Part shown: positions 47,491-64,000 of the stretch, piece by piece
Position numbering within the stretch: position 1 is the first letter of the stretch
Layout: every line of letters starts with the position of its first letter
Source: a virus
Taxonomy: Duplodnaviria; Caudoviricetes
Virus record (IMG/VR): IMGVR_UViG_3300029288_000081
Coordinates: 96,001-160,000 of that record
Reading direction: 5' to 3' (one strand)
Length of the DNA stretch: 64,000 bases
Position numbers and translations under genes: made by a program
The notes under the pieces: generated by a model
Told to the model about the DNA's origin: nothing
Database searches by the model: none
The model's input: the letters and a program-made list of their open reading frames with translations, nothing else

Positions 47491-48141
47491 GTGAGCGTAG
47501 AGCGTGCGAGACTCCATGCGGGCGCCTGGGCCGGTCACTTCGACATGCTCAGAGCACACCTGTATGCGCCCACCTTCAACGAGGCGATCGGAACCACGGA
47601 GCCATACCGTGGGACCGATCACACCGTGGCGGTGATGATCCAGCTCGCCAAGGGTCTCGTCGACCCTCGGGCGATGGTGCAGAGCGCGCTTCAGGGAGAG
47701 CGGAGCATCCGCTTCCGAAGGCACACCGAGCAGATCATCAACAATCTGCGGCCCAAGGACTACACGTCCGAAGTCATCGCCATCAGCAGGTGGTGGGGCA
47801 ACGCGGGCCGATACACACGGGACCCACTACACGTCGAGCTGATCCGTGCTCCGGACCGTCTCCTCGACGACGCGCTTGCCGGCAGACTCCTGGTCGACTG
47901 CGACGATCTGGCGCTCGCCATCGCGACGTCGTGCCTGACCATCGGGGCTCGCGCACAGTTCGTCACCGTGGGCTTCAAGCCGCGCCTGCCGGGCCAGCCG
48001 AAGGTCCACACGCACGTCTTCGCTCGGGCCCAGGACCCCAAGAGCAAGGTCTGGTGGGTGCTCGACCCGGTCGCCGGCCGTAAGACGGGCGACATGCTGC
48101 GTCGCGTGAAGCAGTACACGATCTTCGAGGTGGACCGATGA
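47491..48141 (+). CDS. Transglutaminase-like cysteine protease (candidate maturation protease)
   Basis: YTRDP...VELI, DCDD (Cys), THVF (His), WWVLDP (Asp) triad; true start may be ATG 47545. Confidence 0.8.
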   Translation: MSVERARLHAGAWAGHFDMLRAHLYAPTFNEAIGTTEPYRGTDHTVAVMIQLAKGLVDPRAMVQSALQGERSIRFRRHTEQIINNLRPKDYTSEVIAISRWWGNAGRYTRDPLHVELIRAPDRLLDDALAGRLLVDCDDLALAIATSCLTIGARAQFVTVGFKPRLPGQPKVHTHVFARAQDPKSKVWWVLDPVAGRKTGDMLRRVKQYTIFEVDR

Positions 48142-48452
48142 GCAGGTACTACGACGGACCGGGACTCGGTGTTTCTGCGCTGGGGCAGGCCATCGACTCC
48201 TCACCGCTGACGATCTCGGTCCGCCCGACGGGCGCACTGATCGGCGCATGGTGGAGCCTCTCGACCGTGAGCGGCCTCCTCAGCGCCTACCACGGCTACC
48301 GCCGCAACGACGGCAACCTTGCGTGGGCACTCGCATGGTTCCTCGCGGGCAGCGCGCTGCCCGTCATTGTGCCGGTCATCGCCTTCACGCAGGGCTACGC
48401 CAAGCCCGAAAGCATCTCGGCGAACAGGCGCCGCCGCAGGAGCCGTCGATGA
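48138..48452 (+). CDS. Membrane protein with an Arg-rich tail
   Basis: PGLG/ALGQ, two hydrophobic segments, ISAN-RRRRRSRR. Confidence 0.8.
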   Translation: MSRYYDGPGLGVSALGQAIDSSPLTISVRPTGALIGAWWSLSTVSGLLSAYHGYRRNDGNLAWALAWFLAGSALPVIVPVIAFTQGYAKPESISANRRRRRSRR

Positions 48453-49198
48453 GCTACTTCAACGGACACAGCCGCACCGGGCTCATGGGACTCGGAGCCG
48501 TCGCTGACGAACAGGAGCCCATCCGCCTGGGCGCCCGAGCGAAGGAAGACCCGATCCTGTCGGCCGCATCGTTGATCGCGTCCTCGGTCCTCGTGCGCAT
48601 GGCCGGCGTGCCCAAGCATCGGCGCCTTGCCGAGATGATCATCATCCTCAATGCAGGACGCCCTGGGTCTGGGGACGCAGCGGGTGTCGACTACCGCCGT
48701 CGCGCCGCCGCCGCGCCGGACAAGAAGGACCAGGCGATGTTCGACGCGGTTCGCGCGGCGGTCGCCAACGAGCTGGTTCGCCGGACGCTGAAGAGGGGTC
48801 CCGCTTCTCTCTCTGGCCTTGGGCAGACACTCGCAGAGGCGCGTGGCCAGACCAGCCGTGGCGTCAACGATGCGCAGGCAGTCTTCTGCACCTACATCGC
48901 TGGAACATCCGCGATGGTCGGCGGGTACGTCGATCAGCTCGCAAGCGGAGGCACGCAGAACACGGGCAACATCACCCGTGCGTCGGGTGCGGCTGCGGCC
49001 ACCGGCGGATGCGGTGCTGGCCAGCTGGTCATCCAGGGCGAGAACGCTCTGGCACAGGCTCGACTCGCGCAGAGCGGACAGGCCGCCGCGGCGCTCGCGG
49101 CTGCTGCGCGGGAAGCCACGTTCATGAAGTTCGCTCTGGTGGGCGGTGGCCTGCTGGGTGCGATGATCCTCGGCTACGTCGTCGTCAAGAAGATGTGA
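48449..49198 (+). CDS. Tail-anchored membrane protein (MSY family)
   Basis: MSYF..LMGLG, LSGLGQ, C-terminal TM; start re-called. Confidence 0.8.
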   Translation: MSYFNGHSRTGLMGLGAVADEQEPIRLGARAKEDPILSAASLIASSVLVRMAGVPKHRRLAEMIIILNAGRPGSGDAAGVDYRRRAAAAPDKKDQAMFDAVRAAVANELVRRTLKRGPASLSGLGQTLAEARGQTSRGVNDAQAVFCTYIAGTSAMVGGYVDQLASGGTQNTGNITRASGAAAATGGCGAGQLVIQGENALAQARLAQSGQAAAALAAAAREATFMKFALVGGGLLGAMILGYVVVKKM

Positions 49199-49905
49199 TG
49201 AGCTACGCATCGACAGGATCGGGTCAGGCCGCAGTGCGCGTTGGCAGCGCTGCACAGAGCGATCTTGTGCTCGCGAACGCGTCGCTCATCGCGTCGAAGA
49301 TCATGCTTGGGGCAGCAAAGAAGCCGGCACGCATCCGAGCTGCGTTCATCGCGAACAAGCTCGACGCGATGCGCCCGGGGCTCGCTCGCGAGGTGGCCAC
49401 CTCGCGTCGCCGCCTCGTCGCACAAGGCAAGGCTCCCGACCAGGCCGCGTTCGACGCGATGCGGCTCGCTATCGCGAACATGAACATGGCAGCGGGGATC
49501 GACTCCCTTCGCGTGTCGGCGGCCAAGGAGCACGGCGCAGAGGCCTTCAGCGGTCTCGGGCAGATGGCACCGAACGACCGCGCGACAGCGTGTACGGTGT
49601 CGGCCGGCGCCCAGGTGGTCGGCGGGATCGCAAGCATCGTCCCGGTCTACGGGACGATCATCGGTGGCATCATCAGTATCGGGTCCTCGATCGCTGGCGG
49701 AGCACTCGACTGCACGCGTGAACAGCGAGAAGCTGCGGCTGCGGCTGCGCAGGCTCAGGGGAATCTCGTTGCAGCGCAACAGGCAGCGGCAGCGCAGGCG
49801 GCGGCGCAGGCGGAAGCAACGAGCGGATCGCGAAGGCGCGTGTACATCATCGGAGGCGGCGCACTCGTCGTCGCTCTCGGAATCGGGTATCTCCTGCTGA
49901 GCTGA
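49198..49905 (+). CDS. Tail-anchored membrane protein (MSY family), paralog of 48449..49198
   Basis: MSYA, FSGLGQ, shared ASLIAS...RPG...DQAxFDAxRxAxAN domain, C-terminal TM. Confidence 0.8.
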   Translation: MSYASTGSGQAAVRVGSAAQSDLVLANASLIASKIMLGAAKKPARIRAAFIANKLDAMRPGLAREVATSRRRLVAQGKAPDQAAFDAMRLAIANMNMAAGIDSLRVSAAKEHGAEAFSGLGQMAPNDRATACTVSAGAQVVGGIASIVPVYGTIIGGIISIGSSIAGGALDCTREQREAAAAAAQAQGNLVAAQQAAAAQAAAQAEATSGSRRRVYIIGGGALVVALGIGYLLLS

Positions 49906-49953
49906 ACGAGTGGATTTCTCACGGAACTGGCTGGGCGCCGAACGGAGTAGAGG

Positions 49954-62623: not shown

Positions 62624-62675
62624 GGCGCTCGACACAGAAAAGAGTGTCTGACAAGCACTTTTTCTCACGACGTCG

Positions 62676-62704
62676 TTGACACCTGTGCTGGCTCCATGTA
62701 GTTT
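62676..62704 (+). promoter_or_regulatory. Sigma70-like promoter
   Basis: TTGACA-17nt-TAGTTT in an AT-richer gap. Confidence 0.7.
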
Positions 62705-62769
62705 CACTCTCGAAGACCTGGGGCGTGCCCCTCCCTGCTACGGCGGGTCGAGCGGGTGACGTGTGTCCA

Positions 62770-64000
62770 ATGGCCCTGGTCTACAAGCGCAGCACGAAGA
62801 ATGCGGCTCGCCGGTACGAGAGATCGTCCGGCATGGAGCCCAATCGTGGCCTGCGCTCGAACCCCGGGGTCAGCGCGTTGACGGTGGTGAACACCGGGCG
62901 CGCCCCGAATGGTCGTTTTCAGAGTGGCCGACCGAGTGGCCGGGGCTCGAAGAAGGCGCCGAAGAAGAATCCCTTTCAGTGGATCTCCGGACGCAAGAAG
63001 CACATCCACGAGAGCCCTTCGTACCGGACCCTTCACGGGGCCAAGGCGTGGAAGGCCAGTCACCCTGGCGGCAAGGGGCGCGGTCGAGCCCGGCTCTACG
63101 CGACTGACGAGTACGGAACGGTCCTGTCCAAGGCGATCCCCGAGCGACTGCTCACGAATCCCACGAGGAGAAGCGGAATGGCATACAACATCGGAGCACT
63201 GCGTCGCGCCATGCGAGCGAACTACGGCGCAGGCGGCGTGGACGACCCGGGCGCATCTTCGCTCTTCGCGGCAGCTCGTGCGATCGACACCGGCGGCCGC
63301 TCCTCGACGGCGCCGCGCAAGCGTCGCCCCTCCGCTCGCCGGCCGCGCTCGTCGCGTCCCGCCGAGAGCGCGTCCATGGGTGGGATGACCATCGCGTCCC
63401 GCGGCAAGCGTCGCAGCAGCCGGCACCGTGCCGGCACGCGCGGCAAGCAGCACGACGCGCACATCCGCACCCACGTGCGCCACACGGCCGGCAAGAAGGC
63501 AGCCGCGACCCGCAAGCGCAACGCGAGCCGCCGTGCGGCCGCGGCGAAGAAGGCAGCCAGGACGCGGAAGCGTCGGGCGAGCGGCCGTCTGCCCAGCAGC
63601 AGGCGTCGGGCGAGCCGCCGGGGCGGCAAGCGCCGGGCGACCAAGCGGAGCGCGACGAAGCGCCGGGCGAGCCGTCGCGGCAGCAAGCGCCGGGCGAGCC
63701 GTCGTCGTCGGAGCCGCCGGTCGAGCAAGCGCGGCCTCAGCCGTCGCTCCTACTTCCACGGCCGCCGAGTGCGTCTCACGGGTCGTGAGTACCTCGACAA
63801 GTACCTGACGCGCGGCTTCATGCCGACCGTCACCCGCGTCGGCCGTCTGCCCCTCAGCCGCTCGGGCCGCCCGTCGATCATGACGTACCCGATCCCGCGC
63901 GGAGTCGGCCGTCTCTCCAGCTCCCGCTCGGTGCGCGGCGGCACGCGCCGCGGCTACGCGGTCGGGGCCAGCTACCGCAAGGGCAAGAAGGGGCGCCACA
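62770..64000 (+). CDS. Arg/Lys/Ser-rich protamine- or histone-H1-like core protein, partial
   Basis: Open frame from ATG 62770 (alternative ATG 63178 with GAGGAG) to the window end; KRRASRR repeats; absent from the ORF track because no stop is in the window. Confidence 0.85.
   Translation, partial: MALVYKRSTKNAARRYERSSGMEPNRGLRSNPGVSALTVVNTGRAPNGRFQSGRPSGRGSKKAPKKNPFQWISGRKKHIHESPSYRTLHGAKAWKASHPGGKGRGRARLYATDEYGTVLSKAIPERLLTNPTRRSGMAYNIGALRRAMRANYGAGGVDDPGASSLFAAARAIDTGGRSSTAPRKRRPSARRPRSSRPAESASMGGMTIASRGKRRSSRHRAGTRGKQHDAHIRTHVRHTAGKKAAATRKRNASRRAAAAKKAARTRKRRASGRLPSSRRRASRRGGKRRATKRSATKRRASRRGSKRRASRRRRSRRSSKRGLSRRSYFHGRRVRLTGREYLDKYLTRGFMPTVTRVGRLPLSRSGRPSIMTYPIPRGVGRLSSSRSVRGGTRRGYAVGASYRKGKKGRH

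Follow-up and report, generated by a model that had tools for sequence, protein, structure and literature searches.

Introduction

Why should a virus write the same few short peptides onto many proteins that otherwise have little in common? The question is raised by the late genes of the IMG/VR virus record IMGVR_UViG_3300029288_000081 (Duplodnaviria; Caudoviricetes), a stretch of which was analyzed here, namely the 64 kb from base 96001 to base 160000 of one 171,466-bp contig of 66% GC, called the window below. About 20 to 35 otherwise unrelated proteins are estimated to carry shared modules, which comprise an M-S-Y start, a hydrophobic-x-G-[LMF]-G element, in many cases a transmembrane (TM) helix, and a hydrophobic-x-x-Asn motif that borders an Arg-rich run. 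This tag grammar may be an undescribed way to load proteins beside packaged DNA, probably with trimming, and literature searches brought up no relevant description of such a system. What would be new is the grammar together with the virus lineage carrying it, while tags on virion proteins with maturation sites and a polycationic core are a known kind of thing. Proteins are named below by their length or by the window position at which their genes start.

Shared Modules on Unrelated Proteins

Genome-wide, 19 of 241 proteins begin with M-S-Y where 1.2 would be expected (P = 4e-18). The Ser is written AGC, TCG or TCC, and Thr alternates with it in relatives, so that the constraint on M-S-Y acts on the peptide. 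The second module, hydrophobic-x-G-[LMF]-G, occurs 36 times compared with 13.2 +/- 3.6 in shuffled sequences and is found in the tagged proteins and in a 939-aa Arg-rich protein. Gln is the commonest residue after G-L-G, and the form G[LM]GQ alone is seen 11 times (1.2 in shuffles). Sites of the fuller form hydrophobic-x-G-[L/M/F]-G-(Q/S/D/A) lie in flexible linkers or a few residues past an M-S/T-Y start.

The third module concerns the Asn at the edge of the Arg runs. The residue preceding RRR is Asn in 17 of 79 cases, which is 8.1-fold over the expectation from composition. At the 37 first Asn sites, position -3 holds V, M, L or I 24 times and Pro 4 times; small or basic residues stand at -1 and -2, and Arg predominates from +1 to +5. 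Where a TM helix is present, the Asn is located 6-12 residues beyond its end, after a short Lys/Arg cluster. N-glycosylation sequons were considered as the meaning of the Asn and ruled out, Ser/Thr at +2 being inconsistent. One extended peptide, N-(R/K)RRVRRN, has five copies in the genome (NRRRVRRN in 52873, 54386 and 57106, NKRRVRRN in 58323, and one copy outside the window), and these differ by many synonymous and zero non-synonymous changes.

Asn/Arg sites are concentrated in the late plus-strand genes, 18 of 40 of which carry them as against 18 of 201 genes elsewhere (odds ratio 8.3, P = 3e-7). Comparison of the carriers with low-complexity sequence filtered out left just three paralogues, 48449, 49198 and the C-terminal part of 49954, and the other central domains are unrelated. 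A preliminary description of the window, made from its sequence, had drawn much of this picture. All ten of the (M/V)SY starts that it listed between 48449 and 57490 were recovered, the different synonymous codons of NRRRVRRN in three genes do speak for selection on the peptide, and both the common grammar on unrelated proteins, apart from the paralogous trio, and its concentration in the late module were borne out. It had named a motif frequency no higher than in shuffles as the outcome that would count against the idea; the frequencies found far exceed the shuffles.

Asparagine as the Boundary of Arg-Rich Segments

The hydrophobic-x-x-Asn motif is a discrete unit that parts an Arg/Ser-rich, protamine-like segment from the protein body, regardless of the side on which the Arg run is found. 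C-terminal tags are ordered as body, hydrophobic-x-x-Asn and Arg run, and N-terminal ones as Arg run, hydrophobic-x-R-N and body. Examples of the latter are the Arg leaders MTRRSSKRRSSRRSMTRN-F of a 993-aa protein, MMARRLKRRSSRRLRRN-D of a 729-aa protein and MARRRHSRRSAVRSTRRRRRVHRN-ARKVLRN-LFGAD of a 272-aa protein (MARRRHSRR...VHRN-ARKVLRN-LFGAD). Internal Arg runs with Asn on both flanks are found in 57490 (VKAN-...-LRRN-P) and 58323 (MKRN-KRRVRRN-P). Since the Asn stands on the body-facing side in all arrangements, a cut after it would free the Arg segment every time, and this bidirectional boundary is the best argument internal to the sequences that the motif may be a cleavage site.

The same rule extends to a 939-aa protamine-like protein encoded on the plus strand at 62725..64000, the gene of which runs on to window position 65544 and so has no end within the window. 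Its first 675 residues include 168 Arg, 47 Lys and 84 Ser, with a net charge of +198, and the protein contains repeat units of the form xxxN-GRRRSRRGSRR...RRRV(T/S)RN, with the motif at both ends in the manner of a polyprotein. VRRN is immediately followed by a hydrophobic C-terminal domain, the same domain follows VLRN in the 272-aa paralogue, and the boundary is kept in orthologues of two other genomes, G001 and G002 (VRRN-G, ILKN-F, VRRN-Q). The paralogue gene (L006:1607-2425, window 65607-66425) has an upstream ATG with a good ribosome-binding site and a 27-residue Arg-rich leader ending in VLRN; this start rules out a 245-aa reading from a GTG.

The tags had been taken at first for C-terminal tails behind a TM helix. 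Many are, but others are N-terminal, internal, or borne by proteins that have no TM helix, namely 59582, a PcfJ-like protein and its neighbor beyond the window (71443 and 72969), and several proteins of the relative L016. To our knowledge, the PcfJ-like domain is normally without such tails. A short basic cluster follows each TM helix ahead of the motif, and with this stop-transfer cluster already in place the long Arg run is unneeded for topology. Signal peptides were checked by hydropathy scan; the N-termini consist of MSY and then polar or Gly-rich sequence, mostly with no hydrophobic segment in the first 30 residues.

Conservation among Relatives

Loci from ten relatives, in which the enzyme at the head of the block (described below) is 54-91% identical, were compared. 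They keep the gene order, with a poly-acidic protein, a coiled-coil protein of ~800 aa, two small proteins, the enzyme and then the membrane-protein block, and they keep both the M-S/T-Y...G-hydrophobic-G starts and the hydrophobic-x-x-Asn/Arg tails, which are thus shared by a wide clade of uncultured viruses. Within the near clade, the Asn is retained in 7/7, 7/7, 4/4 and 6/7 orthologues of four families, and adjacent residues vary. In the family of the 104-aa protein it precedes the Arg run in all seven orthologues, one of which is misaligned by MAFFT, and again the flanks vary; for the 483-aa protein (49954) it is present in 7/7 near-clade orthologues. In L007, the orthologues of 57106 and 60811 have plain Lys/Arg ends, and in the outer-clade loci L011 and L014 several orthologues are untagged and other proteins are tagged. 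Such gain and loss between orthologues is the behavior of a modular, dosage-type tag.

IMG/VR was also scanned for DNA encoding N-RRR-V-RR-N-RRR. This gave four stretches, among which L026 encodes the peptide in a low-complexity Arg-rich open reading frame (ORF); none of the four contains the enzyme, the exact 11-mer being too specific for a test of co-occurrence.

The Tagged Proteins in Gene Order

All genes in this section are on the plus strand. Upstream of the block, at 43808..44431, lies the gene for a protein of 207 aa whose C-terminal region is poly-Asp/Glu, 30 of its last 70 residues being acidic. It has acidic-tailed orthologues in L008, L011 and L012 and is without a Pfam or PHROG match. 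From its sequence it is a candidate for the polyanionic partner or scaffold of the Arg tags. The first tagged gene (48138..48452) encodes a membrane protein of 104 aa that has two helices, GPGLG and LGQ close to the N-terminus and the tail ISAN-RRRRRSRR, and is found directly 3' of the enzyme gene in most relatives. It is followed at 48449..49905 by two paralogous MSY proteins (48449-49198 and 49198-49905) with L-M-G-L-G, L-S-G-L-G-Q or F-S-G-L-G-Q and a C-terminal TM helix. The pair, listed among the (M/V)SY proteins in the preliminary description, has no Asn/Arg tail. The 483-aa protein at 49954..51405 has A-L-G-M-G-Q, a C-terminal TM helix and the tail ITRN-AKRLARKAGLR.

Two short proteins come next, within 51402..52045; the first, of 98 aa, has LYGLGQ and a TM helix, with an acidic end after VRKN, and the second, of 114 aa, has VSY, HLGQ, a TM helix and MAAN-RKRSRRSR. 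Within 52061..54958 membrane proteins are encoded by 52061 (MSY, MMGLGD, VTAN-RKSKRGKK), 52873 (MSYAGLGQ, MAKN-RRRVRRN-RRHR), 54081 (PTPN-RRRRHRRSR) and 54386 (MSY, LPGMG, STPN-RRRVRRN-RRRRSRR). The region 54977..57486 starts with 54977, in which a central TM helix and VSKN are followed by an acidic linker and a soluble domain. It continues with 55752 (MSYAGLGQ, a TM helix, MRRN-SSKRR and a Zn-ribbon), 56489 (MSY, LHGMG, MNGLG, LAFN-GRRSRRRKRSR) and 57106 (MSY, MRGMG, VAKN-RRRVRRN-RRRSRRS). An Arg-rich run after hydrophobic-x-x-N, which the preliminary description had noted as usual, is indeed found in most of these proteins, but after VRKN (51402) and VSKN (54977) the sequence is acidic.

Three further carriers lie within 57490..60319. 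The first, 57490, has MSY, an N-terminal TM helix and VKAN, an Arg/Ser run and LRRN-P ahead of a 210-aa domain; 58323 has a HicA-like N-terminus and MKRN-KRRVRRN-P, then a TM helix; 59582 is Cys-rich, has no TM helix and carries PVKN-RRSRRTSRRRTSRRRR. A 120-aa protein at 60811..61173 has a hydrophobic segment and PIRN-RRRR, and its L007 orthologue is untagged. When ten tagged proteins were searched against Pfam, only sub-threshold matches were obtained, such as PG_binding_3 (E = 0.022) for 55752, which is a lead toward a possible peptidoglycan-binding ectodomain on that protein.

The plus-strand genes at 47.5-64 kb all have a GC3 of 0.78-0.90 compared with a GC2 of 0.4-0.65, so their frames are real. 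Most have a GGAG ribosome-binding site 7-9 nt 5' of the start, and many start/stop overlaps read ATGA. Promoter- and terminator-like signals within the block do not rise above shuffle level, so that it looks like a single operon with translational coupling. A blastn search of the block against GenBank phages gave no match at the DNA level. At 48425-48452, 54362-54389, 54930-54958 and 57460-57490, an AGGAG and the overlapping ATGA of the next gene lie within the last Arg codons of the tails, as in CGC AGG AGC CGT CGA TGA, which reads RRSRR*; the recurrent RSRR ending thus doubles as a translation-initiation signal. Several M-S/T-Y genes beyond the block are without a ribosome-binding site and have instead a TAGAAT- or TACGAT-like -10 box that ends 6-7 nt before the start (L001:8495-8520, L001:16325-16347, L002:18235-18259, L004:19323-19345 on the minus strand, and L006:9753-9777). 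A -10 box so close to the start suggests leaderless mRNAs, and leaderless starts may in turn bear on the constraint of the first codons.

The Neighboring Transglutaminase-Fold Enzyme

At the head of the block, 47545..48141 on the plus strand, lies the gene for a 198-aa enzyme with a conserved Cys-His-Asp triad and a predicted transglutaminase fold. Such a gene had been recognized at this place in the preliminary description, and both triad and fold were found; the gene is real, although its start was moved to Met19 of the ORF, at position 47545. Clustered at 90%, its metagenomic homologues number at least 167, the longest of their contigs measuring 298 kb, and D136-C137-D138, H175 and D192 are invariant among 30 homologues that are 58-93% identical. 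An AF2 model (pLDDT 76) was compared with the PDB by Foldseek and matched 3kd4, LapG, 3isr, TglA, PNGase, Rad4, TgpA and PeiP with probabilities of 0.9-1.0 and modest scores (E = 3e-4 to 5e-2, TM-score 0.3-0.48). The enzyme has the Cys-His-Asp order and, judged by this model, the papain/transglutaminase-like core of the transglutaminase-like cysteine protease superfamily. The Pfam family PF01841 gave no match to it at E <= 0.01, nor at E <= 1 in six frames, and a precomputed match is present in 2 of 120 listed homologues. A search of the enzyme profile against PDB sequences returned only spurious repeat matches to designed Kelch proteins, which were discarded.

The enzyme shares its fold and Cys-His-Asp triad with LapG/BTLCP and with PeiP/PeiW, but sequence similarity to these is undetectable by Pfam. 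LapG cuts a di-alanine (Ala-Ala) site in one adhesin, and PeiP and PeiW cut a cell-wall isopeptide bond. Papain-like enzymes select their substrates mainly via a hydrophobic S2 pocket, and by analogy such a preference would fit a cut after [L/M/F]-Gly better than one after x-Asn.

The enzyme gene is translationally coupled to the first tagged gene by an ATGA overlap. It lies directly 5' of that gene in the window and in L007, L008, L010, L017 and L018, and one gene further away in L016. A predicted complex of the enzyme with its 104-aa neighbor scored 0.28, under the mark of 0.32, and is neutral on binding. Family-model searches of the genome for rival proteases of the T4, HK97, adenain, C13 (legumain) and C48 (Ulp) types found none. 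The disordered N-terminus of the enzyme (window 47545-47640) includes a near-invariant P-x-(F/Y)-N, the Asn of which, N30, is shared by at least 90% of homologues; some relatives have MQLRAN as the start of the enzyme. Going by the sequence, P-x-(F/Y)-N may be a site of self-processing. A Fic/MazE-like toxin-antitoxin pair is inserted in the 298-kb relative, on the opposite strand just 5' of the enzyme gene (L016:9154-9857).

Comparison with Known Systems

The closest analogues, as far as layout goes, appear to be the T4 capsid-targeting sequence and adenovirus core maturation. The T4 sequence is removed by gp21, and Alt, an injected ADP-ribosyltransferase, is packaged as cargo (PMC9026906). 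There, a short common peptide takes unrelated, fast-evolving proteins to the head and is then cut, and the M-S/T-Y...G-hydrophobic-G starts and Arg tags on HicA-like and PcfJ-like cargo would fit such a scheme. A short shared terminal peptide on unrelated proteins is found here as in T4, and a virion location of its carriers is putative. The T4 signal consists of ~10 N-terminal residues and is cut after L/I-x-E by an S77 serine protease, whereas the tags here are mostly C-terminal, poly-Arg and Asn-bounded, and many of their carriers are membrane proteins. No match to the prohead protease families S77 (PF03420) and S78 (PF04586) was obtained in the genome at E <= 1.

In adenovirus, Arg-rich, DNA-condensing core precursors and further virion proteins are trimmed by a packaged Cys protease (PMC4246237). 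This protease, AVP, which cuts pVII, pX/mu and pVI, belongs to clan CE, family C5, whereas a transglutaminase-like fold is seen in the candidate enzyme of the window. Neither an Asn-type site nor TM-anchored tags are present in adenovirus, and the host here is judged prokaryotic. The AVP consensus is (M/I/L)-x-G-x-G or (M/I/L)-x-G-G-x, and adenovirus mu is an Arg-rich peptide excised at both ends. At the level of the motif only, hydrophobic-x-G-[LMF]-G matches this consensus, and the excision of mu is reminiscent of the units of the 939-aa protein. Cysteine proteases of families C5 (PF00770) and C48 (PF02902) gave no match in the genome at E <= 1, and the locus does not belong to the T4 or the adenovirus system because their proteases are absent.

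Protamine-like Arg-rich domains are known from the C-terminal domain of the hepatitis B virus core protein, from baculovirus P6.9, from the N-terminal arms of nodaviruses and bromoviruses, and from phiX174 protein J, which combines a basic DNA-binding part with a hydrophobic capsid-anchoring part. Arg/Ser-rich runs of the kind seen here, such as RRRSRRGSRRSSRRR, neutralize and tether packaged nucleic acid in those proteins. The known domains are confined to one or two dedicated proteins, whereas here they occur on 20 to 35 proteins with a fixed Asn delimiter, and DNA binding is putative.

Proposed Mechanism and Alternative Explanations

The explanation that we prefer, with a confidence just short of an even chance, is that membrane and cargo proteins are co-packaged through binding of the Arg segments to a polyanion, and that maturation involves cuts at both motifs. 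The Arg/Ser segments would bind the packaged DNA or, at a stage before packaging, the conserved poly-acidic protein of the upstream gene, and in this way the particle would take up membrane proteins along with soluble cargo, namely the HicA-like, PcfJ-like and Zn-ribbon proteins. There the Arg segments would offset the charge of the DNA, with the membrane-anchored 939-aa poly-Arg protein as the main condenser. Cuts at hydrophobic-x-x-Asn and at G-hydrophobic-G would then free Arg peptides and ectodomains. The transglutaminase-fold enzyme would be the leading candidate for at least the Gly site; the Asn site might cleave itself or use another enzyme. The parts of this scheme differ in strength. 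Binding of a polyanion by the Arg segments is likely, cleavage at the Asn is put forward tentatively from the boundary pattern, and a protease role for the enzyme is somewhat doubtful given the range of its fold. The widest version, a lineage of prokaryotic viruses with an adenovirus-like core in which a protamine-like polyprotein and Arg-tagged proteins meet first a poly-acidic scaffold and then DNA and are matured at two sites by a transglutaminase-fold enzyme, is on the whole unlikely to hold in every part.

Several points weigh against the packaging and maturation scheme. Three M-S-Y proteins look cytoplasmic, namely an SNF2 helicase, a protein with an N-terminus resembling a DnaQ-type exonuclease by eye, and an uncharacterized 116-aa protein; with such ordinary carriers, M-S-Y is no pure virion tag. 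The last 3-5 residues (RSRR*) of several tails are constrained by the embedded ribosome-binding site and ATGA overlap. What connects the enzyme with the motifs is their adjacency in a single clade, and as every enzyme-bearing genome belongs to that clade, their co-occurrence is no independent evidence. The fold itself spans proteases, amidases, cross-linkers and the viral cell-wall isopeptidase PeiP, and we know of no transglutaminase-fold protease that cuts after Asn. By the positive-inside rule the Arg tails would be cytoplasmic, and in an internal membrane of the PRD1 type the cytoplasmic face points to the capsid, away from the DNA, so that the tails would face the capsid. Finally, a 278-aa late protein that is the candidate for the capsid protein gave a poor AF2 model (pLDDT 43).

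The alternative that survives best, though quite unlikely in our view, is that the modules are purely structural or topogenic. Arg tails or DNA-binding arms would stay attached, Asn would be a helix cap and GLG a hinge, and the likeness between proteins would stem from duplication and shuffling of one TM-plus-tail module. A TM helix with a basic tail is the usual layout of membrane proteins. Asn is a good N-cap and C-cap residue, and simple capping of Arg-rich helices at either end would be a further point against the packaging and maturation scheme; the tail ends are in part fixed by the ribosome-binding site and start codon that they contain. Before correction for composition, 52873, 54386 and 57106 match one another only over the TM-plus-tail part, and the module may thus share descent. 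However, the other capping residues, Ser, Thr and Asp, almost never replace Asn, and a hydrophobic residue at -3 is required as well. Tags on proteins without a TM helix and at N-termini, together with the basic stop-transfer cluster that precedes the motif, fit poorly with a topogenic role, as do the repeat units of the 939-aa protein, which are bounded by the motif on both sides in the manner of a polyprotein.

Decidedly unlikely is a second alternative, in which the tags are real and the enzyme does other work. It could be a virion-associated isopeptidase of the cell wall or lysin like PeiP and PeiW, or a transamidase or deamidase acting on the Gln of GLGQ or on Asn and leading to cross-linking, and cleavage at Asn would be autocatalytic and dependent on assembly, as in nodavirus and reovirus capsids, or due to a host enzyme. 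Among the fold neighbors are PeiP, PNGase, which acts on Asn side chains, TgpA and true transglutaminases, and the frequent Gln after G-L-G, with its excess of G[LM]GQ over shuffles, would suit a transamidase. Several sites read Asn-Gly or Asn-Pro, which are contexts of Asn-driven self-cleavage, known at the NPTH of FlhB/YscU and at N-P of reovirus mu1. Against this, Gln follows the motif in less than half of the sites, and the commonest residue after the Asn is Arg rather than Gly or Pro; moreover, no other candidate protease was found, and the enzyme is coupled and adjacent to the first tagged gene.

The preliminary description had compared the tags with the sorting signals LPXTG, PEP-CTERM and GlyGly-CTERM, that is, a C-terminal signal read by a dedicated sortase, exosortase or rhombosortase. 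The loose likeness, a tripartite C-terminal signal of motif, TM helix and basic residues on unrelated proteins, is the sole support for this very improbable reading, and the layout itself does not hold. In those signals the order is motif, TM helix and short basic tail, whereas here it is TM helix, basic cluster, hydrophobic-x-x-Asn and long Arg run. They need a signal peptide and their dedicated enzyme, neither of which is found here, and the tags also occur on TM-less proteins and at N-termini. The complete virus genome was searched for the sortase and exosortase families PF04203 and PF09721 without a match at E <= 1, though the host may encode such an enzyme. That the pattern is an artefact, produced by 66% GC, misread frames and gene overlaps and lacking any selected motif, is a negligible prospect, for although CGN-rich off-frame ORFs are common in the genome and the ribbon of ribosome-binding site and ATGA runs inside some tails, GC3 supports the frames, the motifs are far above shuffles, identical peptides are written in different codons, and they are kept in relatives.

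If the packaging and maturation scheme is true, the tags amount to a portable code, readable from sequence, that predicts which orphan proteins reach the particle in a clade with hundreds of metagenomic homologues and genomes of ~150-300 kb. It would be a tagging and processing code without a described counterpart in bacterial or archaeal viruses and the first protamine- or adenovirus-like scheme of DNA condensation and maturation in a prokaryotic virus, bearing on how a large genome is packed without a recognizable terminase. Transglutaminase-fold enzymes would gain a new substrate class, possibly with P1-Asn or P2-hydrophobic/P1-Gly specificity, and the Asn-bounded Arg tag could serve as a handle for loading cargo, like the T4 capsid-targeting sequence. 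Under a conservative reading, too, the motifs are useful markers of the clade and of its virion module.

Virion Type

From ~43 kb onward, almost nothing in the plus-strand module is matched by Pfam or PHROGs. The terminase, portal and capsid models searched in six frames were PF03237 and PF03354 for the large terminase and PF05065 for the HK97 capsid, none of which gave a match at E <= 1, and no PHROG structural match was found among the ~40 proteins scanned. Head-tail genes have not been recognized in the clade. The most conserved late protein is the 278-aa capsid-protein candidate mentioned above, which has 252 homologues. It was compared with the double jelly-roll major capsid proteins of membrane-containing tailless phages (PRD1/PM2-like) and shows a weak language-model likeness (0.76) to PM2 P2 (P2_N/P2_C); hhalign against PM2 P2 was negative, a structural search with the poor model returned only generic beta-sandwich matches (Z < 4.5), and a profile search against PDB sequences found nothing. 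Whether the virion contains a membrane is, in our estimate, evenly balanced. The 278-aa protein (L006:2554-3429) shares the C-terminal peptide IDG(I/L)(H/R)SRD(V/I)L with a 182-aa protein (L001:16920-17468), and this common end may reflect paralogy or a C-terminal docking motif.

Genome and Host

CheckV gives the IMG/VR record a completeness of 100%. Replication genes, namely a ResIII/DEAD helicase, an AEP primase and a 5'-3' exonuclease, occupy the minus-strand half of the window. A DUF2201 metallopeptidase and VWA-like protein, split by a LAGLIDADG intein, is encoded at 27307-29766 (minus strand) and adjoins a MoxR-like AAA ATPase at 30349-31524. A 1078-aa orphan at 6858-10094 (minus strand) has the Walker A sequence SPGVGKTKT near residue 235 and no Pfam or PHROG match; being among the very few P-loop proteins of the genome, it is a candidate packaging or replication ATPase.

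The host is judged prokaryotic because of the ribosome-binding sites and ATGA gene overlaps. Relatives have been binned into genome bins of seven different phyla, a spread that rules out assignment of a host via bins. A 106-kb contig in a 7.8-Mb Planctomycetota bin (G002:C115, L027-L032) is a distant relative end to end, with 34 shared proteins and no host flank; a prophage reading of it was rejected in favor of a binning artefact, as it is viral throughout. The record is labeled linear in IMG/VR. The same peptide, QIPAAARAQVYICAACRKG..., is encoded at both ends of the contig (L001:25-471 and L006:11273-11464), so that the assembly closes on itself and the genome is circular or circularly permuted.

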